From Candidatus Thorarchaeota archaeon (GTDB taxonomy: Archaea > Asgardarchaeota > Thorarchaeia > Thorarchaeales > Thorarchaeaceae), in contig JAUWOA010000002.1 of the NCBI GenBank assembly GCA_030612365.1, positions 425 to 64,424 of the forward strand: a DNA stretch of 64,000 bases, read 5' to 3'. The translations under genes and the position numbers were made by a program. The notes under the pieces were generated by a model. The model ran no database searches and was not told the DNA's origin. It saw nothing but the letters and a program-made list of their open reading frames with translations. Shown in pieces: positions 1,033-21,200 of the stretch. How positions within the stretch are numbered: the first letter of the stretch is position 1; each line of letters opens with the position of its first letter.

Positions 1033-1640
1033 CGCACTTGTATGTCCCCCCCTCATCAAACGATGTGACACCCAGCTCCACGATCAATCTTGTCAATCTA
1101 CTGATGAGAAACACTAACAGACGCGTGACAGTACTCCGAGTAGGAGGAACGGTGGACCCTGACCCAGAGGTGTATGTTGTCACCCGGGTGGACTGGCGGG
1201 ATAAGGATCTAAACAGGCCAATTCTACCCCAATTGCCAAAGGTGCTTTCGATGCTGGAAACCCTTCGAGGCTCTAGGGGTGTGCCCAAGGAGATTCACCT
1301 TGACAGTACCGACGGTGTTGTGTGCTACATACCAACTGGCATCAGAATGTCCCAGCTACCAAGAAGCGCAAAGGCATCAGTTCAATTCATCATGTCCGTG
1401 GTCAACCAGACAGTCAGCCACTTCGATTCGACCCGGTCTGAGGTCGAAGACTGGTTCTGGAGGACAGCACGCAAGAGGGGCTTCAATCCTGAGATTGTCG
1501 AGAGGATCGCCCGAAGGGAGAAGCACTACGATTCGCCATCTCACGAGCATAGGTTCAGCAAGGTCATAGAGGATTACTTCTCTCTCAGATTCAAAGTCTA
1601 TCGCGCAGAGTCATGTTTGAAGCTGGAGGGAGCATACTGA
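1029..1640 (+). CDS. hypothetical protein
   Basis: 203-aa ORF overlapping the upstream stop by 4 nt. Its TGA overlaps the ATG of the XPD gene (TGATG). No motif recognised. Confidence 0.5.
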   Translation: MTHLYVPPSSNDVTPSSTINLVNLLMRNTNRRVTVLRVGGTVDPDPEVYVVTRVDWRDKDLNRPILPQLPKVLSMLETLRGSRGVPKEIHLDSTDGVVCYIPTGIRMSQLPRSAKASVQFIMSVVNQTVSHFDSTRSEVEDWFWRTARKRGFNPEIVERIARREKHYDSPSHEHRFSKVIEDYFSLRFKVYRAESCLKLEGAY

Positions 1641-3616
1641 TGGCTGTGATGCGATGGTTTCCGTACACTCCAAGGCTCCAGCAGGATCGGGCCGTGACGC
1701 ATGCTGCCCATGTATTTCAGGATAAGACAGTGGGCCTGCTATCGGCGGACTGTGGAGTTGGAAAGACAATTGCCGTGCTCTCAGGGTATCTTGCGGCACG
1801 GGCGAAAGATGCATCGTCGCGATTGATTGTACTTACGAGAACGCACTCTCAGTCAAAAGTCTTTGAGGATGAGCTTGGAGTCCTCAGGGAGGAGTCGGCT
1901 GCAATGTCAGCTGGGCTCCAATTGACGGCCACGAGCATGGTTTCGCGGGGGCATGTCTGCCCATTGACCGACGAAATGAACTCGGTGTCATCAATCGGGT
2001 TCCTACGTGCATGCGCACAGATGATAGGCGCAGGAAAGTGCAGCATGTACTGGAGCTTCTACAAACGGGGATCGGAGGGCCGACCTATAATCCGAGACGC
2101 TGCCCGGCAAACTGTTGACGCCCTGCTGAACGAGGGCGTGGTCACTCGGGATGAAGCGGAGGACGTGGGGCGCTCGGAAGGAGTATGCCCGTACGAGGTC
2201 TTGCGCTGGTGTGCGCGCAAAAGTAGAGTAGTGATTGGTCCTTACGGCTACCTGTTCAGGGAGAGAGTCCGGAATGCGCTCCTCGCATCACTTGGAATGA
2301 GCTTACATGAGGTCGACCTGATTGTCGATGAAGCACACAACCTAGCATCACATGTACTGGGCTCGGAAACCGCATGTGTCAGTCTGTCTGATCTTGAATG
2401 GCTGAGAAAGCATAACTCAGAGATAGAGCGTGAAACGCAGGTCGAGTGGCTCCCTGAGGCGGTTGACTTTCTCTGGGAAACCGTGATGACTAACCTTGAT
2501 GATATGCACTCCGAGAAAAATCTTGAGAAGTGGGATGTACTGCCAAGGTTTGTAGATGAGTCACAGATACAGAACCTACTGCTTGGGACAAAGATTGGCC
2601 TGGATGAGTCTGATGGCACAGTGCCCACGGAAACCCCGCTGGACCGATTGGTGGAATTCCTCTACACGGGGCACCGAGCAGTTCAGAGTGAGGACTGGCA
2701 TGTCACGTTAGAGGTTAGGAAGCCTTGGAGGCAAGAGTCGAACAGCCGTGATGCTGATCTGAAGATTAGACCACTGAATGCAGCTGGATTGTCGGCCCCC
2801 GTACTCAGGGGCGCAAGATCTGCGTTGCTCATGTCTGGTACTCTGAGGCCACTGCAGCACTATGCGGACCTGCTGGGAGTGTCAGGTGCCCTGATGGAGA
2901 GCCTGATGAGTCCTTACCCTCATGGGAGTCGTCTTGTGCTCCTTGACAAGGATATCACAACCAAGTACACAGCGCGGGGCGAACAGCTGTGGAGGACCAT
3001 AGCAGGAAGAATCTCAACAGCCTTGACAGCGATGCCCTCCGAGAAGAGCGCCCTGATTGCCTTTCCAAGCTACAGGATAATGGAGGATGTTCTGAGCTAC
3101 GGCATAGATTGTGGATTCAGAGCAAGGCTAGAGGAAGCCCCAGGAGAGCGCATTGAGGTTGTCAAGGACGCACTTGAGGAAGGGCCTCATACGGTGTTTT
3201 GTGTCTACGGAGGCAAATTCTCTGAGGGCGTTGACCTTGTGGAGGGCGGGTCGAGTATGATTGACCTGATTATCGGAGTTGGGATTCCATTCAGCCCTCC
3301 AACCAGCTACCAGAAAGCCCTCCAAGGATGGTACGAGAGAAGATTCGGGAAGGGTGCAGGCTACTACTACTCGTCAATCGTACCGTCTTTTCGGATGGTT
3401 GCACAGCTTGTAGGCAGACTTCGAAGGAGCCCTGAGGATCGGGGAGTGGTCGTGCTTCTCGACAAGAGGTTCCAGCAATACATCAGAGTCTTTGGAGATG
3501 ACATGGTTTCGGACCACTGGCCCTACTCAGGAGTAGACGAGATGAGGGGTGCCATTGACCTATTTGTGAGACAGAGGAACAGAAAGGCGGAGGCGAAGGG
3601 AGAGGTTGGCGTTTAA
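1640..3616 (+). CDS. xpd: XPD/Rad3 (DinG-like) superfamily-2 DNA helicase with 4-Cys Fe-S domain
   Basis: N-terminal FPYTPR..Q, Walker A DCGVGKT, DEAH box (VDEAHNL). Four spaced Cys (VCPL, RACAQ, GKCSMY, GVCPYE) lie between motifs I and II. Later motifs SGTLRP, GKFSEGVDL, RLRRSPEDRGVVVLLDKRF. The ATG at 1640 is preferred over the longest ORF start (1613) because it overlaps the upstream stop. Confidence 0.85.
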   Translation: MAVMRWFPYTPRLQQDRAVTHAAHVFQDKTVGLLSADCGVGKTIAVLSGYLAARAKDASSRLIVLTRTHSQSKVFEDELGVLREESAAMSAGLQLTATSMVSRGHVCPLTDEMNSVSSIGFLRACAQMIGAGKCSMYWSFYKRGSEGRPIIRDAARQTVDALLNEGVVTRDEAEDVGRSEGVCPYEVLRWCARKSRVVIGPYGYLFRERVRNALLASLGMSLHEVDLIVDEAHNLASHVLGSETACVSLSDLEWLRKHNSEIERETQVEWLPEAVDFLWETVMTNLDDMHSEKNLEKWDVLPRFVDESQIQNLLLGTKIGLDESDGTVPTETPLDRLVEFLYTGHRAVQSEDWHVTLEVRKPWRQESNSRDADLKIRPLNAAGLSAPVLRGARSALLMSGTLRPLQHYADLLGVSGALMESLMSPYPHGSRLVLLDKDITTKYTARGEQLWRTIAGRISTALTAMPSEKSALIAFPSYRIMEDVLSYGIDCGFRARLEEAPGERIEVVKDALEEGPHTVFCVYGGKFSEGVDLVEGGSSMIDLIIGVGIPFSPPTSYQKALQGWYERRFGKGAGYYYSSIVPSFRMVAQLVGRLRRSPEDRGVVVLLDKRFQQYIRVFGDDMVSDHWPYSGVDEMRGAIDLFVRQRNRKAEAKGEVGV

Positions 3617-4205
3617 TTCTGCTAGTAGTCAGCTGAGGTATGTCGTGCCTGGAGCTGTTGGCGCAGCTTGGTCACTCAGGATGGCCCTTGACCAGTCATA
3701 TCAGGTTGTTCTTGAGTCGACAATAGGGCTGTTCCTCCTGTTGGTCGCCTTTGTGATATACATGAAGGGATGTGAAAAGAACCTTCTACTCTGGAACAAC
3801 GATACTGCGGTTCTCGCCACTGTAAAACCTCTCACAGTGGAAGTGTGCGCAGCCCGACTCATGACCAGTGTCCCGCTTGGGATTGACCTAAGCTATTCCG
3901 CGGGTAGAGTCCTTGAAACCATGACAATCAGGTTCAATGAGGAAAAGAATGCAGAACTGCGGTTCTTTGTCTGTCGACCTTTGGGACGTGGGGTTACACG
4001 CGTAGGCATGATGGTGGTTCGTCAAGCACCAAACATGCGTAGGTTGGCGTCTGTTGTTAAGAAACTGTCAGAGAAGGTGCTGGAGGATGTAATGGTCTTG
4101 GAGAGTGCTCTGCGCGCAGCCTATGCCCATATGCCCATTGCACGAGCGGAGCTAGATGATATCGCTCTCATAAACTCTGGAGGTGTGGATTTCGTTGTCA
4201 ACTGA
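3606..4205 (+). CDS. hypothetical single-pass membrane protein
   Basis: 199-aa ORF overlapping the XPD stop. One hydrophobic helix (IGLFLLLVAFVIYM). No catalytic motif. Confidence 0.5.
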   Translation: MAFNSASSQLRYVVPGAVGAAWSLRMALDQSYQVVLESTIGLFLLLVAFVIYMKGCEKNLLLWNNDTAVLATVKPLTVEVCAARLMTSVPLGIDLSYSAGRVLETMTIRFNEEKNAELRFFVCRPLGRGVTRVGMMVVRQAPNMRRLASVVKKLSEKVLEDVMVLESALRAAYAHMPIARAELDDIALINSGGVDFVVN

Positions 4206-4482
4206 GGTGCAAGCCCAGATCACAATCCCCACATCGCTACGCCCTCAGGCTGTCATGGACTCTTTGTCAATTGGCCATGGTTACAGTTGGATTGTTCTTG
4301 TTCCTACGCCAATGAGGATAGCTCATGGAAGCACATCGTGCGGGGACATGCCCGAGCTACTGATTGTAGGCAAGACCCTCCTGACGAGCGGGGGAAATGA
4401 AGTTTACATTGGCCGCCTGAGGAGGATGCTTGAGGTGTTGTCGGGCACTGTTGTGAAAGTGCGGAGGGATAGCGATGTCTAA
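4183..4482 (+). CDS. hypothetical small protein
   Basis: Fills the gap between the flanking genes and overlaps both. Alternative ATG at 4255. No motif recognised. Confidence 0.35.
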   Translation: MWISLSTEVQAQITIPTSLRPQAVMDSLSIGHGYSWIVLVPTPMRIAHGSTSCGDMPELLIVGKTLLTSGGNEVYIGRLRRMLEVLSGTVVKVRRDSDV

Positions 4483-6826
4483 GGGCGGCCATATCATGGG
4501 TTCGAAGCCCGAGAGAGACCCTCTGGAGGAGATAAAACAAGCCCAGCTTTGGGTTACGCAGAGCACCGAGCTTAGATGGAGCGATAGAAGTGTTCGTCCT
4601 CCATGGACGAAAGTCTTTCTGGCAACGGCAATGATTATCGTAGGAACATTCTGGATGCCGTGGCTTACAATCACGATGACGGTACTAGCATCCGTCATTC
4701 TTCTGATTCTTCTCAACCTATTCTCGGTGAACAGAACCCTGAAGGAATGGACACGTGTTCCTGAACCCGATCTATCGCTTGAGGAGGATGAGAAGAAGAA
4801 GTACGTCTGCAGCAGGGGAATAGGAGGCGAGCGGCATATCGTGGGCATGAGCCTCAAGTCGGTTTCCTCCGACCTAGGGGGTGATCTTGGAAAACTCATT
4901 CGGGGGGTAGATACTGGGTATGGTCTGTGCCTTACGGTGGCTATGAGTCCTCAGAATCCCAAGACTGTCCTTGAGGGCGATATCCTGCCGGAAGCACTTC
5001 AGACTTACTTGGAGCACATGTCATCAAACGGGCTCAAAGGTTACATGCTTCGCAGAGGCGGCCTGTGGAAAGCAAGCACGTCGGTATATGGACATTCAAG
5101 AGACCGACTTGCACTTCCCAGATTCGAGGCTTCCATCAAGGGAGCAATTCCGGAACCCGGCTGGAAGAGGGACAAGGCTAAAGATATCTTGGAACGAATC
5201 ATGACTCTTCAACTCACTAGGAACAGCGCATTCCATGCCAGTGGGAGCGAGTTGACGGAGTGGCTCGTTCAGCTTAAGAGCGAACTTGGACCGGAGGTTG
5301 GCAGCAACGTACCCGGCGAGTTCATAGCACCTATACGTGACAGGCCGGGCGATTACCGCCTAGGCGTGACAATCAATCCTGAAACTCTCCAGACTGGACC
5401 AATGGCAGGCATGTGTCACAATGATCTAACCGGAGGAATGTTGCTCTGTGGAGGTGATTGGCCGGAACGACGCAGAGTAATGATGCTCTTGACCAAGCAG
5501 CTTCTGGATGCCGGCAAGCGAGTAATGATTGTGAGTTCCAGGTCCGAGGCGATGGAGTTCGCAGCTCTTACAGACTCGGGGATTGGGTTGACTCTGGGAA
5601 AGGACCTCGTTCTCAATCCAGTCGATGCTGAGGACATTCCGAGAAGCCTGTACGTGCCCCAACTGAAGATGGCACTTGAAACCATTGCAGACACAGACCT
5701 GAGTTCCGCCGCAGATTTTGAATTGGCATTAGGGAGGGCGGTTGCCTTGTCGAACGCAACGCTCGCAGATGTCACACTCCCAAGCGCGGACACAGACATG
5801 ATGGATGGCACAGAGGGTCCTACAACGGACAGGACCTCTCGGAAAACAGAAGCAGGGATGGAAGCAGTCAAGGTGCTTTACCAAGGGTCAGGTTCAAGAG
5901 CTTTCTACGGGCACCAGACTGTTAAGCTATCTAAGCTAGCAGAACAGCAGCTGAGCGTCACGGTCATATCATTGGGGTCAATCATTCTCGATACATTCGG
6001 GTGGGACCTCTTCAGCATGAAGCTAGCCGGCCTGCGCAGTGATTCCGATTTAGTTGTGATCATTGATGGTCCCTTCAATCTCAAGCTCTATGGACCATAC
6101 GATTCCAGGTACAAGAGACGCGTCCCTTGGACTGATCAACTCACACGCGACTTGACAAGAAGAGGACCTCTGATTGTGAGCATTGAGAGACCATCGGGTC
6201 TTGCCACGGAGGTTGTGGCTAGGTTATCATCGTGCATATCCCTACGGCTTCGCAACAATTGGGATATCGGTGTTGCTACAGACATTCTCGGGTTGACAGT
6301 CATTGGCCATGGTTTGCACAGTAAGGCCCGCCAATCCTCCAGAGAGTCATCATATCTTAGAGTGATGGAGAAGGGAATTGCGCTAATGGTACATGACGGT
6401 GCAGAAACCTGCCAGCCAATACAACTTGATGACGCCCCTGCCTTGCTACCACCATCGACCGATGAGTTGTCGAACAGGGCAGCAGGGGTTTCCAATGGTA
6501 TAACCAGCGACGATGGAAATACAGGCCATACGACTCTGATAGGTCATGTAGCTGGAAGCGAAACTGACTTGGCTGTGAGTGTGCTCAGATTGCTTCAGCG
6601 ATACGAACCCCTCACAGAGGAGGCACTTCACAGGTTTATCATCTCAAGCAGTGGACGGGAGGATATGGATGTCGAAGCAGTGCTTGTCAGGCTAGAACAT
6701 GCCAGTATGATCCTGCGGGGCCACGAGTCACATGGCGGAGTGTCCTACGCGAATTACAGACTAACCATGAAAGGCACGATGGCACTACACCAGATGGCGG
6801 GAGAAGAAGCCACAGCTACAGGATGA
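4475..6826 (+). CDS. membrane-anchored HerA/FtsK/VirD4-like P-loop-fold protein with degenerate Walker motifs and C-terminal wHTH
   Basis: Two N-terminal TM helices (FLATAMIIVGTFWMPW, TMTVLASVILLILLNLF). The core has HerA/DUF87-like order, but Walker A reads GGDWPERR (nt 5450..5473) and the Walker B position reads LVVIIDGPFN. ISLRLRN..D follows. The C-terminus (LRLLQRYEPLTEEAL...YRLTMKG) looks like a winged helix. Confidence 0.6.
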   Translation: MSKGGHIMGSKPERDPLEEIKQAQLWVTQSTELRWSDRSVRPPWTKVFLATAMIIVGTFWMPWLTITMTVLASVILLILLNLFSVNRTLKEWTRVPEPDLSLEEDEKKKYVCSRGIGGERHIVGMSLKSVSSDLGGDLGKLIRGVDTGYGLCLTVAMSPQNPKTVLEGDILPEALQTYLEHMSSNGLKGYMLRRGGLWKASTSVYGHSRDRLALPRFEASIKGAIPEPGWKRDKAKDILERIMTLQLTRNSAFHASGSELTEWLVQLKSELGPEVGSNVPGEFIAPIRDRPGDYRLGVTINPETLQTGPMAGMCHNDLTGGMLLCGGDWPERRRVMMLLTKQLLDAGKRVMIVSSRSEAMEFAALTDSGIGLTLGKDLVLNPVDAEDIPRSLYVPQLKMALETIADTDLSSAADFELALGRAVALSNATLADVTLPSADTDMMDGTEGPTTDRTSRKTEAGMEAVKVLYQGSGSRAFYGHQTVKLSKLAEQQLSVTVISLGSIILDTFGWDLFSMKLAGLRSDSDLVVIIDGPFNLKLYGPYDSRYKRRVPWTDQLTRDLTRRGPLIVSIERPSGLATEVVARLSSCISLRLRNNWDIGVATDILGLTVIGHGLHSKARQSSRESSYLRVMEKGIALMVHDGAETCQPIQLDDAPALLPPSTDELSNRAAGVSNGITSDDGNTGHTTLIGHVAGSETDLAVSVLRLLQRYEPLTEEALHRFIISSSGREDMDVEAVLVRLEHASMILRGHESHGGVSYANYRLTMKGTMALHQMAGEEATATG

Positions 6827-9081
6827 TGCGATATGACGAGTCTGAAGACCAAAATGCAACAGCAGGAGGAACAAGCTTGACATCCGCCATGGATACCACC
6901 ACATACGTGAAGGGCATTCTCGCAGGCGTGGGGCTCACTCCTAGGGGTATCCAGAGCAAGGCAATAGAGGCAGGACTGCTTGAGGGCAAGAGTATCATGG
7001 TATGTTCCCCTACAGGTTCGGGCAAGACGCTTGTTGGAGAGATGGCGCTCCTTAGAGGGGTCAGCGACATTTGCAAAGGCATCTACCTCGTTCCCCTGAG
7101 GGCGCTGGCCACGCAGGTTGTCAGTGTTCTCAAGGAGCGCTATGCTGACCAGGGAATCAGGATTGAGGTCTCCACAGGGGACTTTCAGACCGATGGCTCC
7201 GACCTAGCAGAGGCTCAGATACTTGTGACGACCTACGAGAGAGCAGACTCCCTCGTGAGGCACAAGGTTGACTGGCTCAACAAGGTTGGAGTGTTGGTCA
7301 TTGACGAGGTACAGAATATCGGGCACACGTCAAGAGGCGCGCGTTTAGAGAGCGTCATTATGAGGATGCGGAAACTGACTGAGGACCTCCAGATAGTTGC
7401 CCTATCTGCTACTGTCGGAGAGCCCTACATGCTAGCTGATTGGCTAGGGTGCCATCTAGTGGAATCTGATGTCCGTCCTGTGCCGTTGACGTGCAAGCTG
7501 GTTCCAACAACAGATCGTGAGAAGACTGTGCAGCAACTTGTGATGGCCACTGTGCAGGCTGACGGTCAGGTGATTGTATTCCACAGGACAAGACGCGAAA
7601 CTGAGGCTGAGGCTAACCGTCTGAAGGATAGTGTGGGGCGACAGCTGCGCACCAATGAACGGACGACCCTTGACAGGGAGATGGACTCCTTAGAGAACTG
7701 GAATGTCACAATACCCTCGGAAATGCGGCCATTTCTGCACGATGGTGTTGCATACCACCATGCTGGTCTTGGAGCCCGCACGAGAAGGCTTGTCGAAACC
7801 ATGTTCGATCGTGGACTGTTGAGGGTGGTCTGTGCAACTACAACACTGGCAGCTGGGATGGATCTACCTGCACGAACAGTGGTACTCACATCAGCAAGGT
7901 CCCCCCAACATCACAAACGGTTCCTTCCCGCCAATCAGGTCCATCAAATGCTGGGCAGGGCGGGCAGACCGGGAAAGGATGTTAGGGGTTTTGGAGTGAT
8001 TCTCACTGGTAGCCAAGGCGAGGTCAAGATGCTGACAAAGGAGTACTTTACGAATGAAGTCAGTCTTGATACTGGAAAGATAGTTCTGACGCCAAAGTAC
8101 GAGCCAGTGACTAGCGAGCTTGGGACATCGAACAGCCTTACAGAACAACTGCTAGTAGCACTCGATTTTCTAGGAGAGGCATCCCTTGAAGAGGTCGAGC
8201 AGGAGTACCTTGGAGAGTCATATTTGTTCTACTGTGGCAGATGGCTAACGAACACCCCCATGAGGATTGTGCAACTCGGTGAGGTGACTGCGCAGGCCGC
8301 AATCGAGCGCCACGCCAATCCGAATATGGTCCGTTCTGCAAGAGAAAATATACTGGGTACGGTCAAGATTAGAGAGCGTGGTGATACAGTCATCGGGGGG
8401 ATTGTTTCTGTGCTGAGGAGTGGACAACAGACATGCAGGTTCTCAGCAAGGATGACATCTGATGGTACGCTGGAGGGTCCGATGTGCTCATGCGGAAGCC
8501 CCATGAACAAGCATGGCTTTCTGTGCAACCATCTTGTTGCGCTTGGCATGGCAGCATCATCGGAGATGATTCAACTGGCCAATTATGTAATCCCTCTCGC
8601 GCTGAGTGAAACAAGTCCGAGTGGCCTTCTGATACGCCTTGGACTCTTGGAGGGTGGTGAGGGCGGCAAGTTGCGACCCACAACCCTCGGCAGGACTGTG
8701 AACAGACTCTACCTCAAGATTACTACCTTCAAAGAGATGATGGCTCTTATTCCGACAATTGGGAGTAACACAGTCCTAATGTCGGTGCTGAGGCATCTGG
8801 TATCACTTGAAACAGGGCAGAAACAGGGTGAAACCTTTGAGGCCCTCATCGGCTCTGTCGCATCAACCAATCTCTCGATGAGAGAAATGGCTCGTATGAC
8901 TAACCTTGCCGTAGGCGACATAAAAGCCCTACTTGACAAGTCACGCTTGCTTCTATACTCGATTGTAGCAGTGGCAGACAGGGGCAACATGGAGCGGGTG
9001 TCTGAGATGGTGCAAGACCTTCTCTCGATTATAGATTCAAGATTACATCACATGGAGAGCGAAAACAATGACAGTAACTGA
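6823..9081 (+). CDS. Ski2/Hel308-like superfamily-2 helicase with embedded SWIM-type zinc finger
   Basis: Motif I SPTGSGKT, motif II VIDEVQ (Q replaces the usual H, nt 7303..7314), SAT, HHAGL, TTTLAAGMDLPA, QMLGRAGRPG. C-x-C-x10-C-x-H (CSCGSPMNKHGFLCNH, nt 8485..8532) lies in the C-terminal third. ATGA overlap with the upstream gene. Confidence 0.85.
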   Translation: MMRYDESEDQNATAGGTSLTSAMDTTTYVKGILAGVGLTPRGIQSKAIEAGLLEGKSIMVCSPTGSGKTLVGEMALLRGVSDICKGIYLVPLRALATQVVSVLKERYADQGIRIEVSTGDFQTDGSDLAEAQILVTTYERADSLVRHKVDWLNKVGVLVIDEVQNIGHTSRGARLESVIMRMRKLTEDLQIVALSATVGEPYMLADWLGCHLVESDVRPVPLTCKLVPTTDREKTVQQLVMATVQADGQVIVFHRTRRETEAEANRLKDSVGRQLRTNERTTLDREMDSLENWNVTIPSEMRPFLHDGVAYHHAGLGARTRRLVETMFDRGLLRVVCATTTLAAGMDLPARTVVLTSARSPQHHKRFLPANQVHQMLGRAGRPGKDVRGFGVILTGSQGEVKMLTKEYFTNEVSLDTGKIVLTPKYEPVTSELGTSNSLTEQLLVALDFLGEASLEEVEQEYLGESYLFYCGRWLTNTPMRIVQLGEVTAQAAIERHANPNMVRSARENILGTVKIRERGDTVIGGIVSVLRSGQQTCRFSARMTSDGTLEGPMCSCGSPMNKHGFLCNHLVALGMAASSEMIQLANYVIPLALSETSPSGLLIRLGLLEGGEGGKLRPTTLGRTVNRLYLKITTFKEMMALIPTIGSNTVLMSVLRHLVSLETGQKQGETFEALIGSVASTNLSMREMARMTNLAVGDIKALLDKSRLLLYSIVAVADRGNMERVSEMVQDLLSIIDSRLHHMESENNDSN

Positions 9082-10888
9082 GGAAGAAATGCCAATACAT
9101 AAGGCTGAGGAGTCCAAGAGTCCCAAAGGAGAATCGAAGACTTACGATATAGTGGAGGTCCTAAAGGCTACTGACCACCTAACCCATGTTTCCCCCAATG
9201 GGCTGGTGTTGGGAGTAAGGGTCTCGGGGATTTCAGGGGCAAGAGGGGTCCACGTTGAGATTGTTCATATACTGGACCTTAGGAATGCGGTCTTTGGCAA
9301 GGGTGGTTTTGCCTTGCAGGCATCGGTTCTTGAGAGTGTTAACAGGGGACTCCCTAGCCTCTTGAAGGACGTTGGGCTTCGAGAACGATTGGAGGCGACA
9401 TCACCGTTGACCCCTTGGGGACGAGTGCCCATGCGTACTCTGCGTTCTGCGTCTGGCAAGCGAAAGTCCTTGGTTTATGAAACCAGACTTGTCTACGTTG
9501 TGACTCAGGATGTCCGATCCTCGGCAGACCTGAGCTGGTTGACTGCAAATGAACGGGTGGTCAGTGTGCACGACTTTTCCCTTGCTAGAAAGAGCGACGC
9601 AAGAACCATTCTGCCCGACCTCGAGAAGAGCCTAATCGTGGATAAGTGGGATGGTTTCTCAAGGGCTATCCGGAATGGATGGTACGGAGTGCTAGCGGCT
9701 GGGGCCAGTGTACTCGGGGGTGTGACATCCCTCATGGTCCTGTTATCGAACTCAGGCAACCTCACTGTACCATTGGCCTTTATGGGGGTGTGTGGAGCGG
9801 GAGCAGCATGGCTACTCAAGCAGTCCCACAATGGGCTAAACGAGTTCCGCAAAATAATCGAGAGTGAACAAGCAGGAGTTGCATCTCTTGGAGATAGGAA
9901 ACGTGTAGCGGCTTCGATAAAGAATAATGAGAAGAAAATTAGGCTCATTGGCGACCTGAGCTTTGTGATATCCCCCTTAATGGCGTCAGCATCGAATAAC
10001 CTTGAAGATAGCGACGTTAACGGTGCCGTAGTGCTTGCAGAAAGGGTCTTGGATGAACTCGTAAGGCTCGCTCCATCTGATGAAGCCAAGAAGGGCATTG
10101 TGACCGGGGACGCTGGGATTGAGAGATTCATTGGCGTCTTCCGAAATGTAGGCGCAGACCTGACAGAGACGGAGGAGGTTTCTCTAGCCCTTGCTTACAC
10201 CGCAGTAACAGGACATGTCACTACGCCGCTAGGGGTAGAAGAAGCCCTGACGCATATGGCAGTCTTGAATACAAGTCTGTTCAATGCAGGTGTATTGAGT
10301 CCGACAGTTAGGGGCTCCATTGATGATATGTTCATCTCGAGGGCATTTCATGTAATCATTGACGAGTTCGGTGCAGATCTTGCCAAGCCAGAAGAGGAGA
10401 TTGTGCAGACCGTTGAGGGGGATGACTCTGGCATGGAGGAGCTAATTGGGGACATTGCAAAGTCCGGTCCGGTTTCAGAGGAACACGAGGAGGAAGCTAA
10501 CCCCGAGGTGGAAGAAACCCCTGAAGAAGAACTGCCAGTAGGAGCTCCCGCTGAGGTGGAATCCACAAAGGATGAAACTGAAACCGATTGTGTTGAGGCA
10601 GTCGAGGTCGAACTCGCGCCTCCGAGCAAAGCGGAACCCGACGGGACCCAGAATGATACTGATAGCAAGGAGAAGCGAGAGGAAGAGGCAATTCCTGAGG
10701 TCTCAGACGATGTGACTGTTGCAGAGGAATCAGAAGCGCTTGTGGTGGCGCAGTCTTCACTTGATGAGGTAGAGAACGAAAAGGACCCCTCTACGGGGCC
10801 TGAGGCCATCAGCAGGAGGAAGAAGAAGCAAGCCAAGCAACGTGCTATGGGTCGAACGAAGCGGGAGCGTGGTAAGGTCGCAGCTTGA
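9068..10888 (+). CDS. hypothetical membrane protein with acidic low-complexity C-terminal region and basic tail
   Basis: Two TM helices mid-protein (GVLAAGASVLGGVTSLMVLL, LAFMGVCGAGAAWLL). About 130 aa of E/D-rich sequence, then RRKKKQAKQRAMGRTKRERGK. Overlaps the upstream stop. Confidence 0.55.
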   Translation: MTVTEEEMPIHKAEESKSPKGESKTYDIVEVLKATDHLTHVSPNGLVLGVRVSGISGARGVHVEIVHILDLRNAVFGKGGFALQASVLESVNRGLPSLLKDVGLRERLEATSPLTPWGRVPMRTLRSASGKRKSLVYETRLVYVVTQDVRSSADLSWLTANERVVSVHDFSLARKSDARTILPDLEKSLIVDKWDGFSRAIRNGWYGVLAAGASVLGGVTSLMVLLSNSGNLTVPLAFMGVCGAGAAWLLKQSHNGLNEFRKIIESEQAGVASLGDRKRVAASIKNNEKKIRLIGDLSFVISPLMASASNNLEDSDVNGAVVLAERVLDELVRLAPSDEAKKGIVTGDAGIERFIGVFRNVGADLTETEEVSLALAYTAVTGHVTTPLGVEEALTHMAVLNTSLFNAGVLSPTVRGSIDDMFISRAFHVIIDEFGADLAKPEEEIVQTVEGDDSGMEELIGDIAKSGPVSEEHEEEANPEVEETPEEELPVGAPAEVESTKDETETDCVEAVEVELAPPSKAEPDGTQNDTDSKEKREEEAIPEVSDDVTVAEESEALVVAQSSLDEVENEKDPSTGPEAISRRKKKQAKQRAMGRTKRERGKVAA

Positions 10889-11564
10889 GAACGATTCCAT
10901 GTTCGGGCTTAACGGTCTGATACATCTCTCTGGAGTGGCTGGTTCTGGCAAGACCCTCTTTGCAGTCGCCTTGGCATCCAAGGCTACGCGGAGTGGGAAG
11001 GTGCTATGGATCAACACCGATGCGAAGACAGCATTTGTCAATCATCTGAAGGTCAACATTGATTCAGTGGGTGGCGACAGGATAGCAATCTCTATTCTCC
11101 CAATCATGGGTCATAAGCGCGTCCGAGAAGCCATTCTGAACCTTCCAGGCAGTCTTGACGAGGACACGGTGCTTATTGTAGTCGATCCCGTAACGCGAGC
11201 CTTGGACATGTCCCACAGAGAGGATGTGATGTGGGGTAGAGAGATGTTCGAGGAAGTGATGCCCACCCTTGCAGGTCTGATTGCTAGAGGATTGAATGTG
11301 ATTATTGTGTCTGAGAGCAGGAGCTTTGACCGCGAGCCTGTTGCCGTGTTTCATAGGTCGATAAAGGGGTGGGCTGATCACGACTTGGTGCTTTCTAGGC
11401 GGTATGGCACATCAGTCACCGACGTAACACGCTATCAGACTGAAGGTAAAGTTCCTTTCGTGCAATTCACACTAGCAGAGGAGGGGGTTGTGAAGGTGAC
11501 AGAATACAATGAAGGAGACAACTCGGAGGTGTCGGATTGTTCGGGAAGTCGATGCTCCGCATAG
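10842..11564 (+). CDS. RecA-superfamily ATPase (RadB/KaiC-like short RadA paralog)
   Basis: Intact Walker A GVAGSGKT (nt 10932..10955) and Walker B-like LIVVDPVTRAL. No N-terminal HhH domain. The ATG at 10899 (MFGLNGL) is an equally plausible start 10 nt after the upstream stop. Confidence 0.75.
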   Translation: MLWVERSGSVVRSQLENDSMFGLNGLIHLSGVAGSGKTLFAVALASKATRSGKVLWINTDAKTAFVNHLKVNIDSVGGDRIAISILPIMGHKRVREAILNLPGSLDEDTVLIVVDPVTRALDMSHREDVMWGREMFEEVMPTLAGLIARGLNVIIVSESRSFDREPVAVFHRSIKGWADHDLVLSRRYGTSVTDVTRYQTEGKVPFVQFTLAEEGVVKVTEYNEGDNSEVSDCSGSRCSA

Positions 11565-12508
11565 TGGGACTGGTAGTTGCTGGTGCCGTGGCACTTGCCT
11601 TGGGAGCCAGCCTGCTGAGTTCAGTTGTGGGAGTTGTAACTGCTCTAAGATCTGGGGATATGGTCCCGTTCATTGTTGTGGCAGTGACCACAGTCATCTT
11701 CCTCAGACTGTCTGCACGACCCTATGAGAAACGAACACCTGTTCACGTTTTGCTAGAAGTGCTCGGATGGACCTCTGCAATCTACTTGTTCGTGGTTGTT
11801 CTAATGTGGGTGCTTCCATTCGGAGTGGTGCCGGCAATCCTTGCAGCAGGGGTCACAGCTGTGTTGTGCGGGTTCGTAAGAGACCCAACCGGGCTCAATG
11901 AGAAAATGAGTCGAATTGCAGATGTTTCATCATCATTAGGTCTGAGTCCTACTGGGTTGAGCATCACCTCGCAATTAGACAGCACTCAATCGATGTGGGC
12001 GAGAATAGAGAATCTCCGGTATAAGGTCATAATCATTCCCCACAATCATTTTGACACAGTGATTGGCCTCCTCAAGGACCGCCCCAAACTTCCAGTATCC
12101 CTCACACGACTGGAGGATACAGATGCTCTGATAGTGAGAGATGAGGAGTGGACTGACAGAGTCCTTGAAGTGTTGAGAGAGAGTGGCGTTCCTGACGCAC
12201 ATATTGCCTCCCCTCTTCTTGAAAAAGCGATACTTGCACACCCCCTGTTGGAGCAGGATCACGGGGTCAAGGTCAATGACTATCAATTCACCTGTGACGC
12301 TGACACCGTGGAAAAATTACTAGCAATTCAACCGCTGCGAATGACCGTGTATCCCGATCCCAAAGGACTGGTTGTGATGGTTTTCAGTGACAGCGTACCC
12401 GGACTCAACCTTGAACCCCTTCCGATGGGAAGAGCGGCATCAGCAGTTATGGCCCGTGATATATCACACCTACCCAGAGGTGAACCTACTATTGGCAATT
12501 CCACTTGA
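11537..12508 (+). CDS. hypothetical polytopic membrane protein with soluble C-terminal domain
   Basis: Four or more hydrophobic helices in the first ~110 aa, then a ~200-aa soluble region. Overlaps the upstream gene. Confidence 0.55.
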   Translation: MFGKSMLRIVGLVVAGAVALALGASLLSSVVGVVTALRSGDMVPFIVVAVTTVIFLRLSARPYEKRTPVHVLLEVLGWTSAIYLFVVVLMWVLPFGVVPAILAAGVTAVLCGFVRDPTGLNEKMSRIADVSSSLGLSPTGLSITSQLDSTQSMWARIENLRYKVIIIPHNHFDTVIGLLKDRPKLPVSLTRLEDTDALIVRDEEWTDRVLEVLRESGVPDAHIASPLLEKAILAHPLLEQDHGVKVNDYQFTCDADTVEKLLAIQPLRMTVYPDPKGLVVMVFSDSVPGLNLEPLPMGRAASAVMARDISHLPRGEPTIGNST

Positions 12509-13205
12509 TTCAATTGACATAGCAACAGAGCCAGTGACGAGGCTGGTGCCACGACAACTTGACAGGGTGTTAGGACAACTACTGATTCCAGGTCAGGTCA
12601 GCCTTATTCACGGCCCTGACAGGTCTCCACTGACGACTATTGCGCATGCTGTTGCGGTGGGTGCTGTCAAGTCTGGCGGACGGTCCGCATACCTGGATTC
12701 TGGTAGCAACTACAGCTCCGCCTTGACGAGGGTGCTGTGCAACAGAAGTGGTTCTCCGGAGGATTTGCTAAAGGAGATTTCAGTGGGACCGGTGATGAGT
12801 CTTGCAGATCTTGAGGGGATGGTCCTTCAGGTGTCCTCCATGGAAGGAATCACAATGGTTGTGGTGGATAGTCTGACGGGAGTGCTGAACCTAACGGGTG
12901 CCCCGAGGAGCAAGGGCAGACAGAGGAAACTCTTCGCCACCCTTGAGGTTCTGAGGGGTGTCGTGAATGACAATAATATCCATCTATTCATCACAGACCA
13001 CTCGACAAGGAACTGGAACAGCGGAACACCCAGCCCGATTGGAGGCAACGTCATCGCTCATGGGGTTGACTCTCTCATCAGAGTGGACCGCCTTGCTGTC
13101 AAGGAGGGTATGTTCAGGCTTGAGGTGGAGAGAAGTCCGGTCAATCCAGCTGACAAGGGAGTGATTATACAAATTGGACTGAATGGAATCAGGTCGATCA
13201 AATAG
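12387..13205 (+). CDS. RadA/RadB-like RecA-fold paralog with degenerate Walker A
   Basis: RQLDRVLGQLLIPGQVSLIHGPDRSPLT occupies the position of LD.LLGGG....i.G..GsGKT, so the P-loop is lost (nt 12612..12635). Walker B strand MVVVDSLTG and GGNVIAHGVDSLIRV are retained. The true start is uncertain; a GTG at 12534 would avoid the 122-nt overlap. Confidence 0.7.
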   Translation: MTAYPDSTLNPFRWEERHQQLWPVIYHTYPEVNLLLAIPLDSIDIATEPVTRLVPRQLDRVLGQLLIPGQVSLIHGPDRSPLTTIAHAVAVGAVKSGGRSAYLDSGSNYSSALTRVLCNRSGSPEDLLKEISVGPVMSLADLEGMVLQVSSMEGITMVVVDSLTGVLNLTGAPRSKGRQRKLFATLEVLRGVVNDNNIHLFITDHSTRNWNSGTPSPIGGNVIAHGVDSLIRVDRLAVKEGMFRLEVERSPVNPADKGVIIQIGLNGIRSIK

Positions 13206-13211
13206 GAGGAA

Positions 13212-14204
13212 TTGGGGGTGGGTGCAAAGAACTGGAACTTCGTGCCTTGGGAGTGGGCTAGCATTGACGAGCTTTCTCCAAGGACAATCGCTATAGACGC
13301 CCCGAACTATCTTATCCGCAGACTGTCTACCATCCGGAGGGGTAGCAGGTTCAATCGAGTTCCCTTAAGTCATATTCATGTTGTTCTCGGTATAATCCGC
13401 GCAGCGCTTCGCACTCATGTCCTTCCAGTACTGGTGTTCGATGGCCCTCCTGAGACACTGAAACGTGCTCCCAATCCCGAGCTCATCATTGCGGCACACG
13501 ATCTATACCGCACCTTCTACTCTGAGAGAGACCCCTACAACCACAAGCTGGTCAATGACCTGCAGGAAAGTCCTGCACTGAGGATGTACTTTGCAGCGTT
13601 TCACATCAAGGATCTCTGCAAAAGCCTGGGTATCCCATGTATCAACTCGCCCTCTGAGGCTGAGATGGCGGCTGCAGTCATGTGTCGTGATGGGTTGGTT
13701 GGCACGGTTGTGTCGAATGATGCTGATGCGCTATTGTTCGGAAGCCCGCATGTCACAAAACAGCTCCATCTCACAAAGAGGGAAATTTTCAGGGTCACGC
13801 AGAGTGAGCTTGAGGCCAAGATGGACCTAGACCTAGAGCATCTGAGGGACCTTGCTATTGTGTGCGGGTGCGACTTCCACAAGCAGGGTGTGAAGGGAGT
13901 GGGGCCTCGCAAGGGGGTGGTCCTCCTTCAGAGGCACGGAGGTCTTGTAGGACTTCTCAAGGCGCGTGGCTATACTGCATTTCAGAGAGAGGATTACATT
14001 CTCGCCCGAGAGGTCTTTGATGAGCCTAATCACATGTCCAGCAATGGGTTTGATATCACTCTCAGACCTCCAATGGTCCCAATGGCAGTCAGGCTGCTCA
14101 GCGCTGTTATGGGAACGGAGAAGGCCAAAGAAACCGTGGCGAAGATAATACGACTGTGGAAAAATTTCGGTGAACAGCAGACAACACTGGAGCAATTTGC
14201 ATGA
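13212..14204 (+). CDS. fen1: flap endonuclease FEN-1 (XPG/Rad2 family)
   Basis: MGV N-terminus, IAIDAPNYL, VLVFDGPPETLK, SPSEAEMAAAVM, SNDADALLFGSP, H3TH region CGCDF..GVKGVGPRKG. The extreme C-terminus QTTLEQFA is PIP-box-like. AGGAGGA at 13204..13210; start at TTG 13212 or GTG 13218. Confidence 0.85.
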   Translation: MGVGAKNWNFVPWEWASIDELSPRTIAIDAPNYLIRRLSTIRRGSRFNRVPLSHIHVVLGIIRAALRTHVLPVLVFDGPPETLKRAPNPELIIAAHDLYRTFYSERDPYNHKLVNDLQESPALRMYFAAFHIKDLCKSLGIPCINSPSEAEMAAAVMCRDGLVGTVVSNDADALLFGSPHVTKQLHLTKREIFRVTQSELEAKMDLDLEHLRDLAIVCGCDFHKQGVKGVGPRKGVVLLQRHGGLVGLLKARGYTAFQREDYILAREVFDEPNHMSSNGFDITLRPPMVPMAVRLLSAVMGTEKAKETVAKIIRLWKNFGEQQTTLEQFA

Positions 14205-14247
14205 CGAGAAGCGAGGGGCATATCCCGAGAATAGGAGGACGATAGGA

Positions 14248-14979
14248 ATGAACAGTCTACTGGATGAGAATACACAAGGCCCAATCCTTACAAGTCGTGA
14301 AGTCAGGGAGCGGTACATCGAACTGGAGAAAGCCATGAAGGAGCTTAAGGAGGAGTACAGGTCATTCATCCATACAATGGCTCATGACATCAGGGGGTGC
14401 TTCAATGCGGTCCTTGGCTATGCACAGCTTCTCAAGGAGGTCCACAATCCAGAGTACGCAGATACGATTGTTGAGAGTGTCCATAGGATGACGCGGTTGC
14501 TGGACCGGTCAGTACGACTAGTGGACATGGGTGTACCCGTGAGCTGGCTCTCAGAGGTTGATCTGAACAAGGTGATTCCAACAGTTGCTAGTTCGGTGTT
14601 GCCCGCGGAGGTTGAATTCTTGCATGATAGACTTCCGATTGTGCTTGGAGATCCAGACAAGTTAGCACAAGCCTTTCAGAACCTGTTCGCAAATGCTGTC
14701 GAACATGGAATGGCACACAGGGTTGAAGTCCGCAAGAGGAGCGCAGAGGGTGGGATTGCGATTCTATTCCGCAATGATGGACAGCCAATTCCCGGTGAAC
14801 TCCGCTCATTAATATTCAGCGAACGGGTAAGCTCCAAACCTGGGGGCGGAATGGGGCTTGGTATTGTGAAGAAGATTATTGAATCTCATGAATGGAGTAT
14901 TAAACTGGATCCTGTTGAGATGCCGACCTTTAGATTATATGTGCCTGCGTCTAGCATTGTTAATGGGGCTGCATGGTGA
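14248..14979 (+). CDS. soluble sensor histidine kinase (HisKA + HATPase_c)
   Basis: H-box HTMAHDIRG, N-box NLFANAVEH, G-boxes RNDGQPIP and GGGMGLGIVKKIIESH. No TM segment. The ATG at 14248 is preceded by GGAGG (14234..14238). The longest ORF starts at 14170 inside fen1. Confidence 0.8.
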   Translation: MNSLLDENTQGPILTSREVRERYIELEKAMKELKEEYRSFIHTMAHDIRGCFNAVLGYAQLLKEVHNPEYADTIVESVHRMTRLLDRSVRLVDMGVPVSWLSEVDLNKVIPTVASSVLPAEVEFLHDRLPIVLGDPDKLAQAFQNLFANAVEHGMAHRVEVRKRSAEGGIAILFRNDGQPIPGELRSLIFSERVSSKPGGGMGLGIVKKIIESHEWSIKLDPVEMPTFRLYVPASSIVNGAAW

Positions 14980-18234: not shown

Positions 18235-21200
18235 ATGAAACGCAGGAATAGACTGACCCTACTTGTTGTATTTGGACTTATGTTGCTATGTTCAACGCCA
18301 CTCCTCGCAACCTTGCACTCATCGCTTGAGCCGCCGGGAGGACAGATAGCGACTCGACTTGAGAATTCATTCACGCGGTCAGCAGACTCCAGTGTACTTG
18401 TACAGCTGGGCTCCTACGTAATAGTGAATCTTCCTAGTGCAACCATTCCAGATAGGGGCATGGAGATTGAGAGCCTGCTGGCATCCTTCGGGGTTCATAC
18501 TCAGTTGACTACAGTCAGCGACACACTCAGCAACCCTGAAGTGATTGAGAGTGCTCATGTCGTCGTCCTTGATGCCAGTCTTGGGTCTGAAAACGGGAGT
18601 TTTGTGCCGTCGGAGTTCATTGCACTTCTTCTAAGGCACGATAGACCCGTTGTTCTAATCGGGCGCGCGGCCTGGTTATTGCACAGACTTAGAGGGCTAG
18701 GTTCACCCTCGCAGACCGCTTCCATCAACGCCCTTTTGCAGACATCTGAGGGTCACGATGGAGCGGTCTTTCTTTCCTTGCCTGAGAGCCTAACACTGGG
18801 CGCCAGTCTCACATCTGAAACTGGGGTGTTGCTTCCAAATGACCGGGTGCAGACTGAGCGTTCAAGGCTAGAGGACCTGACCGGCAAAGGTGTGTCTGGT
18901 CAGCTTGCCCCCCTGAGACATGACGCGTGGCCTCTTGATGCATTCCTCTTCGGACCCGAGGACCCATCCCTTCTGACTACTAACGGCAGGGGACTCCTGC
19001 TGAACACCATTGCCTATGCAACAGCGATAGGCGAATCACCCACATCGCAGATGCTGATTGACTCACAGATTCCTAAAAGTGAGTTGCTTGCAGGAGGTTT
19101 CCATTACCAGCATGAGTCGATGGTTGAGTTCACGTACTATGCAGTACACTCCATGAGATCGGTGCTCGACGCAACCGCATGGACACAGTGGAGGACTGAC
19201 CATCAATCGAAAGTGCAGAGCATCCTGTCCAGTCTGTACGTTGAAACCGGTTCAGACGCTTGTTTCATGGACTCTGCGTCAGGAAGCAAGGTGAATCTTA
19301 AGACAACTGCTTGGGGGCTCTGGCTAGTTGAGGTCATGGGCCTCTCATCCCAGTTCACAGTGTCAAAGCTTGTAGCCAATCTGAGTGCCGGGCAGGATGT
19401 GTCCGGTGGCTTTAGCGATGACATGACAGCAACATTCCATATCACCGAAGCATTATTCGAGACAGGTGAGCTGTCAGCAATCAACACAGGTACTCTTGAG
19501 TCTTGGCTCAGGGACTGCGTTGTAACGGGATCGGATGCTCCCTCGAACCCAGAATACTGGGGAGGGGTATCAAAGAATCCGTCGAACATCATTCCAAAGA
19601 ACTCCTACTCGGTACAGTACGTACTGGCTCTTGAAATGCTTGAGGAATCACATCACGATCCCAGCAAACTGACAGAATGGATACATGAGGATACATCCAA
19701 CGGTGATGGCTCGTTCAATGATGTTGTGGGGCAGAGCTTTGAAACCGTCACAGGAACGTCCTCCGCACTCACCACACTCTCAGTTCTGGGAACACTCAGT
19801 AGCTCTAACAGAACTGCTGGGCTTGCATGGCTATCATTCAACCAGTTGGACTCTGGCGGGTTTGGAATGCGCGACAAGGCTTTGGATGTCGTTGCTAAGT
19901 CGCGAGAAACCGAGAGAGTCGCGCTGTGTCTGAAAGAGCTGGGAGAAACCACTGGTGACATTATCGGTGGTGTATCAGATTATTTCGCACTTGTGGAAAC
20001 CAACATGGGGTTCGAAACCATGGAGCCCCTCCCGACCCTAATGTGGAGCTACTGGGTCACCGATATCGCAAGGCTTACGCATGGCACGATTGACCATGAG
20101 CAAGCAGTTGACTACTTGGAGTCCTTCGGTGAGTGGAGAATGTATCCCTTCTGGAGCAATATGACCACCTATGCGGGGGCAGAGTACAAATCTACACAGT
20201 ACAGGACCAAGAGTGTTTGGTCACAGTTCTTCGGAGTAGGGCTTGCTGCGTCTTTGAGTGTGCAGCTCCCAGCAGGTATGGTGTCTGGAACATCCAACTA
20301 CATCAGTCAAGCACAGGACTCATCAGGCCACTACAGGAACGCTCCATTGAGCGGAAGTCCGCATATACAGTACAGTGTGGCTGCTGTCGAAGCGCTGTAT
20401 CTCATTGATGAACTTGACACAATCACATACAGGACTCAGCTAGAGTCCGCACTGCTATCGGAATACTCCTCCGGCCAATGGTCCACAGACGGATGGACCC
20501 TGATGCCCTTTGCAAGCCAACAATCTGCGATAGACTTGTTGTGTACGAGGGCAGCATTCCGACTTGGTCTGATAGATCCCACAATGGCGTCAGAGATTGC
20601 TAGTAGCATAGAGGCGAGGATTCAGTACGCTGATCTGGGGGCACTGAGCCAAGACGTAGCTACTCTTTCTCTTCTCAACTCCTCGTTCTCTATTAGTGTA
20701 AGTTCCATCGACCGCGACAATGTACTTGGTGCCCTCGGGTCTTCATCCTTCCCTGATGGTTGGTTCAACTCCACTGACCTATGGCAGCCTGCTCTTACAG
20801 CAGGGGTCTTGAAGATGATATCTGCTCTGGGACTGAGGACCCTTCTCTATGATACATCAGGAGGCTCGATATCAGCTACTGTCCAGTCAGTACCGGATGT
20901 AGGACAGATTCTGAGCCTCGATGTTGTTATCATCTCATCTCTCACTACGCACACAGTCTATGTGCAAGCCTTTGACGAGTGGGTGCGTTTTGATAACGTT
21001 GCCAACACGGACACTCTGGAAGTTCCGATCCCGAATGACGAGTCAGCCCTTGGCCCTGCAAACGTGTCAGTAATGCTGTGGGACTGGGGCGCATCCCGCG
21101 CCTTTGACGGCATCACAACGCAGGTGAGTGGTACACTTCAGGGAACTCTAGACCTTGAAACCCCAACAGTGTTTCTGAATGAGTGTGTCAATGGTACAGT

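Follow-up and report, generated by a model that had tools for sequence, protein, structure and literature searches.

Why would an archaeon maintain, in one operon with a second recombinase, one Rad51-fold protein whose ATP-binding site looks functional and another in which that site has been lost? In eukaryotes Rad51 is under the control of several diverged paralogues, and some of these have ceased to bind ATP; archaea were believed to manage with RadA and one RadB- or aRadC-type helper. The question arises from a stretch of 64,000 nucleotides (contig C153:425-64424; hereafter the window) in a Thorarchaeota (Asgard) metagenome-assembled genome (MAG) of 2.3 Mb and 88% completeness. A prediction made from the sequence alone had described here a graded set of three RadA-fold paralogues: protein 1, RadA-like and named RadA2 below; P2 (open reading frame, ORF, 10842-11564), short and with an intact P-loop; and P3 (ORF 12387-13205), with the P-loop lost. 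All three ORFs and the motifs quoted for them were found at their places (Table 1). We find that P2 and P3 are each a single family restricted to the Thorarchaeaceae, and that the live/dead pair they form probably serves as an auxiliary mediator of recombinase filaments.

P3 has lost its P-loop and the loss is fixed

Where RadA has the Walker A motif GSFRSGKT, P3 reads HGPDRSPLT: the first Gly, the RadA-type Arg and the final Thr/Ser are kept, the second Gly is replaced by Pro and the Lys by Leu. This is the Walker A position because three approaches agree, namely hhalign of the P2 and P3 families, which sets LLHGPERSPLT on HLWGxAGSGKT (157 columns, probability 95.5%, E 1.6e-8), an alignment of 55 sequences, and the AlphaFold2 (AF2) model of P3, in which HGPDRSPLT lies between a strand (residues 71-76) and a helix (82-95). 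The predicted loss is thereby confirmed. Among 68 database relatives of P3, GK[ST] is missing at this position in all 59 full-length members, and the replacement is itself conserved as H-G-P-E/D-R-x-P-L-T/S. The P-loop loss is therefore real and fixed in the family. Two apparent rescues were rejected. Four family matches to the pattern [AG]xxxxGK[ST] all read AVKSGGKS and start 17 residues past the start of the true P-loop motif; and the upstream extension of the P3 ORF (12387-12479), where the original prediction had allowed for a canonical P-loop, has none, is unconserved, is modelled with a predicted local distance difference test score (pLDDT) below 50 and overlaps the upstream gene. Translation probably starts at GTG 12480 or TTG 12492, because orthologues begin (M)NLLLxIPLDS or MTIPLDS and residues 1-35 of the model fall below pLDDT 50; TTG 12492 is preceded by a Shine-Dalgarno-like site, GAGGTGA.

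Other RadA motifs survive to differing degrees. In the 55-sequence alignment the RadA states GSFRSGKT, IDTEGTF, LDS, RQQ and GGHxxAH correspond in P3 to HGP(E/D)R(S/A)PL(T/S), LDSGSNYS, DSLTG, GRQR and GGNVxAH. The P3 Walker B motif, VVVDSLTG, is identical in all eight letters to that of protein 1, and DSLTG recurs in 60 of the 68 family matches, the remainder being fragments or variants. LDSGSNYS stands for IDTEGTF, with the catalytic Glu turned to Gly, GRQR takes the place of the Gln sensor RQQ, and GGNVIAHG is the counterpart of GGHxxAH at the base of loop L2. D104, S105 and N108 are invariant among orthologues.

By profile, P3 matches Pfam Rad51 (PF08423) at 36.1 bits over profile positions 13-241 (cut-off 22); among NCBIfam models RadB (TIGR02237) fits it best, over the full length at 60.1 bits (cut-off 172.4), and the RadA model gives 27 bits. 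The AF2 model (pLDDT 79) has its best Foldseek matches in RAD51, DMC1, RadA and RAD51D, with template modelling scores (TM-scores) of about 0.7. Judged by its motifs, P3 is a core-only, RadA-type predicted pseudo-ATPase from which the Walker A Gly-Lys and the catalytic Glu have gone.

P2 keeps an apparently functional ATP-binding site

P2 carries both Walker A (GVAGSGKT) and Walker B (LIVVDPVT). In the orthologue alignment G31, G36, K37, T38 and D115, the last in Walker B, are invariant, and a canonical Walker A is present in 112 of 115 family members, the other three being truncated. The original prediction granted P2 little beyond GVAGSGKT and VVDPVT; both are there, and so are the further conserved motifs INTDxK, WGRE, PTLAG and SESR. 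In the 55-sequence alignment P2 reads GxAGSGKT, INTDxK with an Asp at the catalytic-Glu position, VIDP, and WGRE with the Gln sensor lost, and the base of loop L2 is absent. With Walker A and B intact and an Asp in place of the catalytic Glu, the ATP-binding site of P2 looks functional. Its start is probably ATG 10899, since MFGLNG is where orthologues begin, the stop of the upstream gene is at 10888, and the model of the longer ORF stays below pLDDT 50 over residues 1-17. One in-frame stop each was seen in two P2 orthologues (G103:C251:24436-25095 and G257:C6:12566-13219; TGA, TAA), which could be assembly error, local decay or recoding.

By sequence P2 is a weak match to any known family: 22.4 bits to RadB (TIGR02237, cut-off 172.4), 18.6 bits to KaiC (PF06745, cut-off 26.6) over residues 26-79 only, and no match to Pfam Rad51. 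Its superfamily membership rests on profile and fold evidence together, the AF2 model (pLDDT 82) having its best Foldseek matches in Dmc1, RAD51 and XRCC2 at TM-scores of about 0.7. Overall, the PDB fold matches of the P2 and P3 models are RAD51, DMC1, RadA, RecA and the human RAD51 paralogues, at about 0.6-0.7. According to models and alignment, neither protein has a helix-hairpin-helix (HhH) domain or an FxxA motif.

These scores bear on the idea that P2 and P3 are a KaiC-like signalling pair, ATPase and pseudo-ATPase, that regulates membrane proteins and is unconnected with DNA. P2 does have sub-threshold matches to KaiC and AAA_25, some family members carry the precomputed Pfam labels PF06745 and PF13481, and a histidine-kinase gene follows the last operon gene, FEN1, in the window and in the closest relative (L007). 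The KaiC score of P2, however, stays under its cut-off, P3 matches neither PF06745 nor the NCBIfam KaiC models, the 50 best Foldseek matches of each model include no KaiC chain, the nearest relatives of P2 score best on RadB (below), and the operon is full of DNA enzymes. We regard a KaiC-like role as very unlikely, and the unrelated KaiC-like clades for which the original prediction had allowed are not where these proteins belong by score or fold.

P2 and P3 probably do not form one graded lineage

We inferred a tree of RadA, RadB and the paralogues with IQ-TREE (LG+C20, 55 sequences, 240 columns), in which the RadB references were chosen by NCBIfam score and from which eukaryotic paralogues, aRadC and KaiC were left out. 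The P2 clade (support 100/100) groups with Asgard RadB-like proteins (99/90), and the P3 clade (100/100) falls on the side of RadA, RadA2 and the paralogues on contigs C17 and C49 (96/94). Both stems are very long, at 2.5-2.6 substitutions per site, and an approximately unbiased (AU) test did not reject P2 and P3 as one clade (p 0.082), the grouping expected of tandem-duplicate sisters, although the free tree separates them. Searches of the genome itself divide in the same way, the P2 profile scoring best on the RadB-like protein of contig C61 (45 bits) and the P3 profile on RadA and RadA2 (45 and 42 bits).

A P2 profile hidden Markov model (HMM) run against the full library returned 39 family representatives at E values up to 1e-30, the last full-length one at 185 bits, after which scores dropped to 66 bits or less. 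Ten of these next-tier relatives were tested, among them proteins from Helarchaeota, Hodarchaeota, Ranarchaeia and 'Asgard group' MAGs; RadB is the best-scoring model for every one of the ten, and two exceed its cut-off (positive controls for TIGR02237: P0197, 214 bits; P0200, 232 bits). P2 is thus a core-only, RadB-derived and highly divergent RecA-fold protein. The predicted graded set fits the motif pattern; as P2 goes with RadB-like proteins and P3 with the RadA side, a single line of descent for the two is improbable, and the genome holds seven superfamily members rather than three.

P2 and P3 are conserved and linked across the Thorarchaeaceae

P3 orthologues, at 186 bits or more in a profile search, occur with intact frames in 53 of 77 Thorarchaeaceae genomes and in 0 of 224 other Asgard genomes, where the best score was 77 bits and the open frames were mostly RadA-sized. 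P2 is present in 52 of 86 Thorarchaeaceae genomes; among high-quality genomes the figure is 21 of 23, and among genera 15 of 16. In 48 of the 52, P2 lies about 0.95-1.0 kb 5' of P3 on the same contig and strand, the four exceptions being at contig edges, and this gap equals the length of the gene for a 323-amino-acid (aa) membrane protein.

One could take P3 for a decaying duplicate, a pseudogene or redundant copy without a function of its own, since both the Walker A Lys and the catalytic Glu have gone. Set against this, P3 evolves under purifying selection (ratio of nonsynonymous to synonymous substitution rates, dN/dS, 0.084 against a same-genus orthologue), 37 columns are invariant among orthologues down to 42% identity, the frames are intact throughout the genomes just counted and the replacement motif is conserved, so decay is hardly tenable. 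Likewise, the two separate and well-supported families, this dN/dS value, the HGP motif and the co-location bear out the view that the pair is more than simple redundancy.

The pair is embedded in a repair operon with four membrane proteins

The first 14.2 kb of the window form a single co-directional gene array, whose enzymes were mostly identified by Pfam and NCBIfam. It contains an operon of 13 genes on one strand, with RadA2, XPD, a 783-aa membrane protein, Hel308, a membrane protein, P2, a membrane protein, P3 and FEN1 in this order (Table 1). Four related Thorarchaeota contigs were fetched for comparison (L007, L008, L010, L011; P3 orthologues at 44-62% identity), and all share the order XPD, ~200 aa, ~90 aa, ~780 aa, Hel308, ~550 aa, P2, ~320 aa, P3, FEN1, the genes after P3 being of XPG_I type. 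The 199-aa gene has counterparts of 197-201 aa in the same place in all four. In all five genomes compared for it, each from a different genus, RadA2 lies 12.4-12.8 kb 5' of P3.

Table 1. Positions of the operon genes, their motifs, downstream genes and RadA-superfamily paralogues (window coordinates unless a locus is named)
Feature	Position	Strand	Remarks
RadA2 (protein 1), 3' part	3-587	+	5' part before window; gene cut by contig start
RadA2 VVVDSLTG	36-59
RadA2 VRQQ	99-110
RadA2 YSNQ	174-185
RadA2 GGHIVAH	231-251
RadA2 Lys/Glu-rich C-terminal tail	390-587
Zn-ribbon protein	592-1032	+	operon gene table
ORF without product name	1029-1640	+	operon gene table
XPD/Rad3-type helicase	1613-3616	+	Pfam DEAD_2, Helicase_C_2, HBB; kept in the four related contigs
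199-aa single-pass membrane protein	3606-4205	+	before 783-aa gene; hydrophobic segment, residues 31-58
Small ORF	4183-4482	+	operon gene table
783-aa membrane-anchored protein	4475-6826	+	2 N-terminal transmembrane segments, residues 47-89; no Pfam match; kept in four Thorarchaeota loci
Hel308/Ski2-like helicase	6823-9081	+	NCBIfam PRK02362 330 bits, Hel308 261 bits, both under cut-off; kept in the four related contigs
606-aa membrane protein	9068-10888	+	just 5' of P2; 2 transmembrane segments at residues 207-250; acidic tail
P2	10899-11564	+	ORF open from 10842; ATG likely start
P2 Walker A GVAGSGKT	10932-10955	+
P2 Walker B LIVVDPVT	11172-11195	+
323-aa membrane protein	11537-12508	+	between P2 and P3; ~4 transmembrane segments at residues 1-115, then 200-aa soluble domain
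P3	12480-13205	+	ORF open from 12387; likely start GTG 12480 or TTG 12492
P3 HGPDRSPLT (P-loop position)	12609-12635	+
P3 LDSGSNYS	12693-12716	+
P3 Walker B VVVDSLTG	12858-12881	+
P3 GGNVIAHG	13041-13064	+
FEN1 flap endonuclease	13212-14204	+	last conserved operon gene; TIGR03674 126 bits, under cut-off
Histidine kinase (HisKA/HATPase_c)	14170-14979		overlaps FEN1 end
Giant prenyltransferase-repeat/immunoglobulin-like surface protein	18235-26061
C80 paralogue			RadA 473 bits (cut-off 259); housekeeping RadA
C17 paralogue	L003:1153-2133		RadA-like, 123 bits
C61 paralogue			RadB-like, 125 bits; more ordinary RadB-like gene
C49 paralogue	L005:1435-2205		69 bits; Walker A and B lost, FxxA kept

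The prediction that a membrane-protein gene adjoins each of P2 and P3 is borne out by hydropathy, from which all transmembrane segments of the operon proteins were read (two in the 606-aa protein, about four in the 323-aa, two in the 783-aa and one in the 199-aa protein). The 323-aa gene shares 28 nt with the end of P2 and 17-29 nt with the start of P3; for its ~320-aa counterpart in the four related contigs these overlaps are 1-28 nt and 17-26 nt. None of the operon membrane proteins gave a match in Pfam, in PADLOC or by sequence in the PDB. The 606-aa protein was aligned with four orthologues, the 323-aa family consists only of unnamed members of about 320 aa, and for both proteins PDB profile searches gave nothing below E 0.1.

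A gene for a giant surface protein of about 1,800-2,600 aa, with prenyltransferase repeats and immunoglobulin-like domains, lies a few kb 3' of the operon and recurs in all four related contigs (L007:17213-, L008:12910-19773, L010:15259-, L011:14699-), so that synteny reaches beyond the repair genes. The histidine-kinase gene after FEN1 is found again in the closest relative (L007:11757-12482) and not in the three more distant loci.

Could the cluster be a mobile element or a defence island that carries recombinase-like genes? Its many proteins without an assigned role and its inactivated ATPases recall some defence systems. There is, however, no meaningful PADLOC match, the guanine-plus-cytosine (GC) content is level throughout the window, and the genes are syntenic in 15 of 16 genera, with the same giant surface-protein gene downstream in the four related contigs. 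We consider this origin extremely unlikely.

RadA2 is an intact second recombinase

Protein 1 had been predicted to be RadA-like, and it does have the full set of RadA motifs; it is a paralogue cut by the contig start and not the main RadA of the genome. The longer ORF, extending beyond the window, adds a Walker A motif (GKASGGKT) and an FKSA polymerisation motif, so that FxxA, Walker A and B, the catalytic Glu, RQQ and GGHxxAH are all present, as they are in five orthologues, in which the HhH segment VPGVGP is also seen. Lacking about 60 N-terminal residues, the sequence scores 193 bits on NF003301 and 173 bits on TIGR02236 (cut-offs 259 and 361) and 70.6 bits on Pfam Rad51. The housekeeping RadA, on contig C80, reaches 473 and 464 bits on the same two NCBIfam models. 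Protein 1 is therefore an intact second RadA and not the housekeeping one.

A Lys/Glu-rich tail closes the RadA2 sequence (Table 1). Since such a tail recurs in another Asgard lineage, on the 844-kb contig described next, it looks like a conserved RadA2 feature.

Related neighbourhoods occur in other Asgard archaea

Two comparison loci of Helarchaeota type (L038, L039), on an 844-kb Asgard contig and a Helarchaeota contig, carry RadB-like relatives of P2. Both have a Hel308-like helicase gene (Pfam DEAD, ResIII, Helicase_C) and FEN1, and in both the 783-aa Thorarchaeota protein is represented by two adjacent genes, one for a membrane protein of about 300 aa and one for a core of about 540 aa (L038:16879-19433, L039:7382-9924); the 783-aa profile matches the 535- and 547-aa proteins at 91 and 86 bits. 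In each locus a gene for a multi-transmembrane protein (574 and 495 aa; L038:10001-12420, L039:409-2594) overlaps the RadB-like gene. On the 844-kb contig a RadA2-like gene with the Lys/Glu-rich tail lies near the RadB-like gene (L038:7749-8921, minus strand), and the shorter contig breaks off a little way 5' of its RadB-like gene. HMM and hhalign searches of L038 and L039 found no homologues of P3 or of the Thorarchaeota membrane proteins, the 198/195-aa gene beside FEN1 included.

RadB-like ATPases may hence be paired with membrane proteins beyond the Thorarchaeota as well. Because these similar neighbourhoods are without P3, the Thorarchaeaceae seem to have collected a broader Asgard repair neighbourhood into one operon and to have added P3 to it.

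P2 and P3 as a candidate filament mediator

The reading that we favour, with moderate confidence, is that P2 and P3 form an auxiliary, heteromeric and possibly membrane-tethered mediator for RadA2 or RadA filaments. The products of P2, P3 and the 323-aa gene would be made together, as the gene overlaps suggest, and both P2 and P3 would be auxiliary subunits rather than recombinases. P2 would act as the nucleotide-binding partner, and P3 as a structural one that neither binds nor turns over ATP and contacts P2, RadA2 or RadA through its Walker B face. Contacts of this kind have precedents: Walker B motifs mediate subunit contacts in RIP-1, RFS-1 and human paralogues, and RIP-1 and Psy3, which keep a Walker-B-like motif only, bind the active paralogue through it (PMC4518479). 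The heteromer may then load, cap or stabilise RadA2 or RadA filaments on single-stranded DNA supplied by the operon's helicases and nuclease, and the membrane partners could tether the assembly to the membrane. RFS-1/RIP-1, Csm2-Psy3 and, at their XRCC2 end, the human paralogue complexes act in this manner; RadB is a proposed recombination mediator (PMC5480776), and eukaryotic paralogue complexes cap RAD51 filament ends (PMC7618403).

Several points weigh against such a mediator. The very long branches make the exact ancestry of both proteins uncertain; P2 may not touch DNA in the manner of a recombinase, because the Gln sensor and the GGH motif of RadA are missing; and a recombination mediator would not ordinarily come with four membrane proteins in its operon, which suggest a role beyond filament control.

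The chief competitor takes up this last point. Here P2 and P3 would belong to a DNA-handling machine embedded in the membrane, which might for example take up DNA or exchange it between cells and couple this to recombination, with P2 as a live RecA-type motor or gate for the 783-aa protein and two membrane partners, and P3 as an inactive adaptor, neither being a classic filament mediator. The four membrane proteins are conserved in the operon, and at L038 and L039 a multi-transmembrane gene likewise overlaps the RadB-like relative of P2, near a Hel308-like gene, the split counterpart of the 783-aa gene, FEN1 and, on the 844-kb contig, a RadA2-like gene. On the other hand, Pfam, PADLOC and PDB profile searches detected no pilus, pore or secretion-ATPase family, the membrane proteins of those loci have no detectable homology to the Thorarchaeota ones, and the recognisable enzymes are all standard repair or recombination proteins. 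We judge such a machine to be a possible but somewhat unlikely explanation.

Rather more doubtful, and put forward tentatively, is a bolder picture of the operon as an Asgard-specific membrane-anchored machine in which a live/dead heteromer of P2 and P3 would sit on the 323-, 606- and 783-aa proteins, incoming or broken DNA processed by XPD, the Hel308-like helicase and FEN1 would be handed to RadA2 as the dedicated recombinase, recombination would be coupled to uptake or exchange, and the pair would have evolved independently of its eukaryotic counterpart.

Comparison with known paralogue systems

Walker-A-less Rad51-fold partners in eukaryotes and RadB-type mediators in archaea are already known. 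In the literature searched we found no description of the P2 or P3 families or of such a live/dead pair; nor is a RadB known to us whose gene is coupled to membrane-protein genes. The one phylogeny of Asgard RadA found there dropped highly divergent and RadB sequences from its dataset (PMC12722695).

Likeness to RadB (TIGR02237; PDB 2cvh) lies in the core-only RecA/Rad51 fold of about 220-240 aa without an N-terminal HhH domain, in the nearest outside relatives of P2, which score best on RadB, and in the best NCBIfam match of P3. The Walker A and B motifs, intact in RadB, are kept in P2 (GxAGSGKT, VIDP), whereas in P3 Walker A is replaced (HGPERxPLT). P2 and P3 differ from RadB in scoring far under its cut-off (22 and 60 bits against 172), and the genome has a separate, more ordinary RadB-like gene on C61 (125 bits); P3 differs further in having no P-loop, in its RadA-like remnants (the P-loop Arg, RQ, GG..AH and DSLTG) and in its place on the RadA side of the tree.

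The Sulfolobus RadA paralogues are not known to have lost their Walker motifs. SsoRal1, of the aRadC group, resembles P2 and P3 as a core-only archaeal relative of RadA, and Sulfolobus paralogues of this kind modulate RadA filament formation (cited in PMC5480776).

RFS-1/RIP-1 of C. elegans and Csm2-Psy3 of the yeast Shu complex show a comparable layout, a Rad51-fold protein without Walker A and with Walker B kept that is encoded together with a Walker-competent paralogue (PMC4518479). They differ in that they are not orthologous to P3 and have no counterpart of the Thorarchaeota membrane partners, and in that the P3 pairing is a prediction from its genes. The human BCDX2 and CX3 complexes resemble the Thorarchaeota set in their folds, the P2 and P3 models matching RAD51D, XRCC2, XRCC3 and RAD51C at TM-scores of 0.6-0.7 (PMC7614784, PMC7618403), in having several diverged paralogues beside one recombinase, and in an association with a Hel308/HELQ-type helicase, by operon in Thorarchaeota and by binding in humans, where HELQ binds BCDX2 (PMC13623763). 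Identity is nevertheless only 11-22%, the human paralogues keep Walker A, and we found no sign of common descent of individual Thorarchaeota and human paralogues.

The live/dead pair thus resembles eukaryotic Rad51-paralogue pairs and appears to be of separate origin: as P3 is confined to one archaeal family, the likeness is convergent, and for the same reason P3 sheds little direct light on how the eukaryotic paralogues arose. Partnerships of a live with a dead paralogue seem to have evolved more than once. What the locus does offer is an Asgard lineage in which such a pair is built into one operon together with a second recombinase, XPD, FEN1 and a Hel308-like helicase, and a prokaryotic system, co-expressible in E. 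coli, for studying the contribution of a nucleotide-free Rad51-fold subunit. With four membrane proteins conserved, it is a testable possibility that recombination is organised at the membrane in these archaea.

Further RadA-superfamily paralogues in the genome

Six proteins of the genome match PF08423, namely those on C80, C17, C61 and C49, protein 1 and P3, and P2 makes seven superfamily members. The C17 paralogue (326 aa) has an HhH N-domain, Walker A in the form GPQWAGKT and degenerate L1 and L2 loops, and its branch, beside RadA2, is very long; the five other genomes searched yielded no counterpart. The C49-type family (~256 aa), on the RadA side, shows FYGxRxxxDDLL at Walker A and LLIIAGLPDL at Walker B and retains an FxxA-type GFSTAD, so that the lineage has two conserved P-loop-less families, this one and P3. 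The C49-type family is present in all five other Thorarchaeota genomes checked (L027-L031), two of which have second copies (L032, L033).

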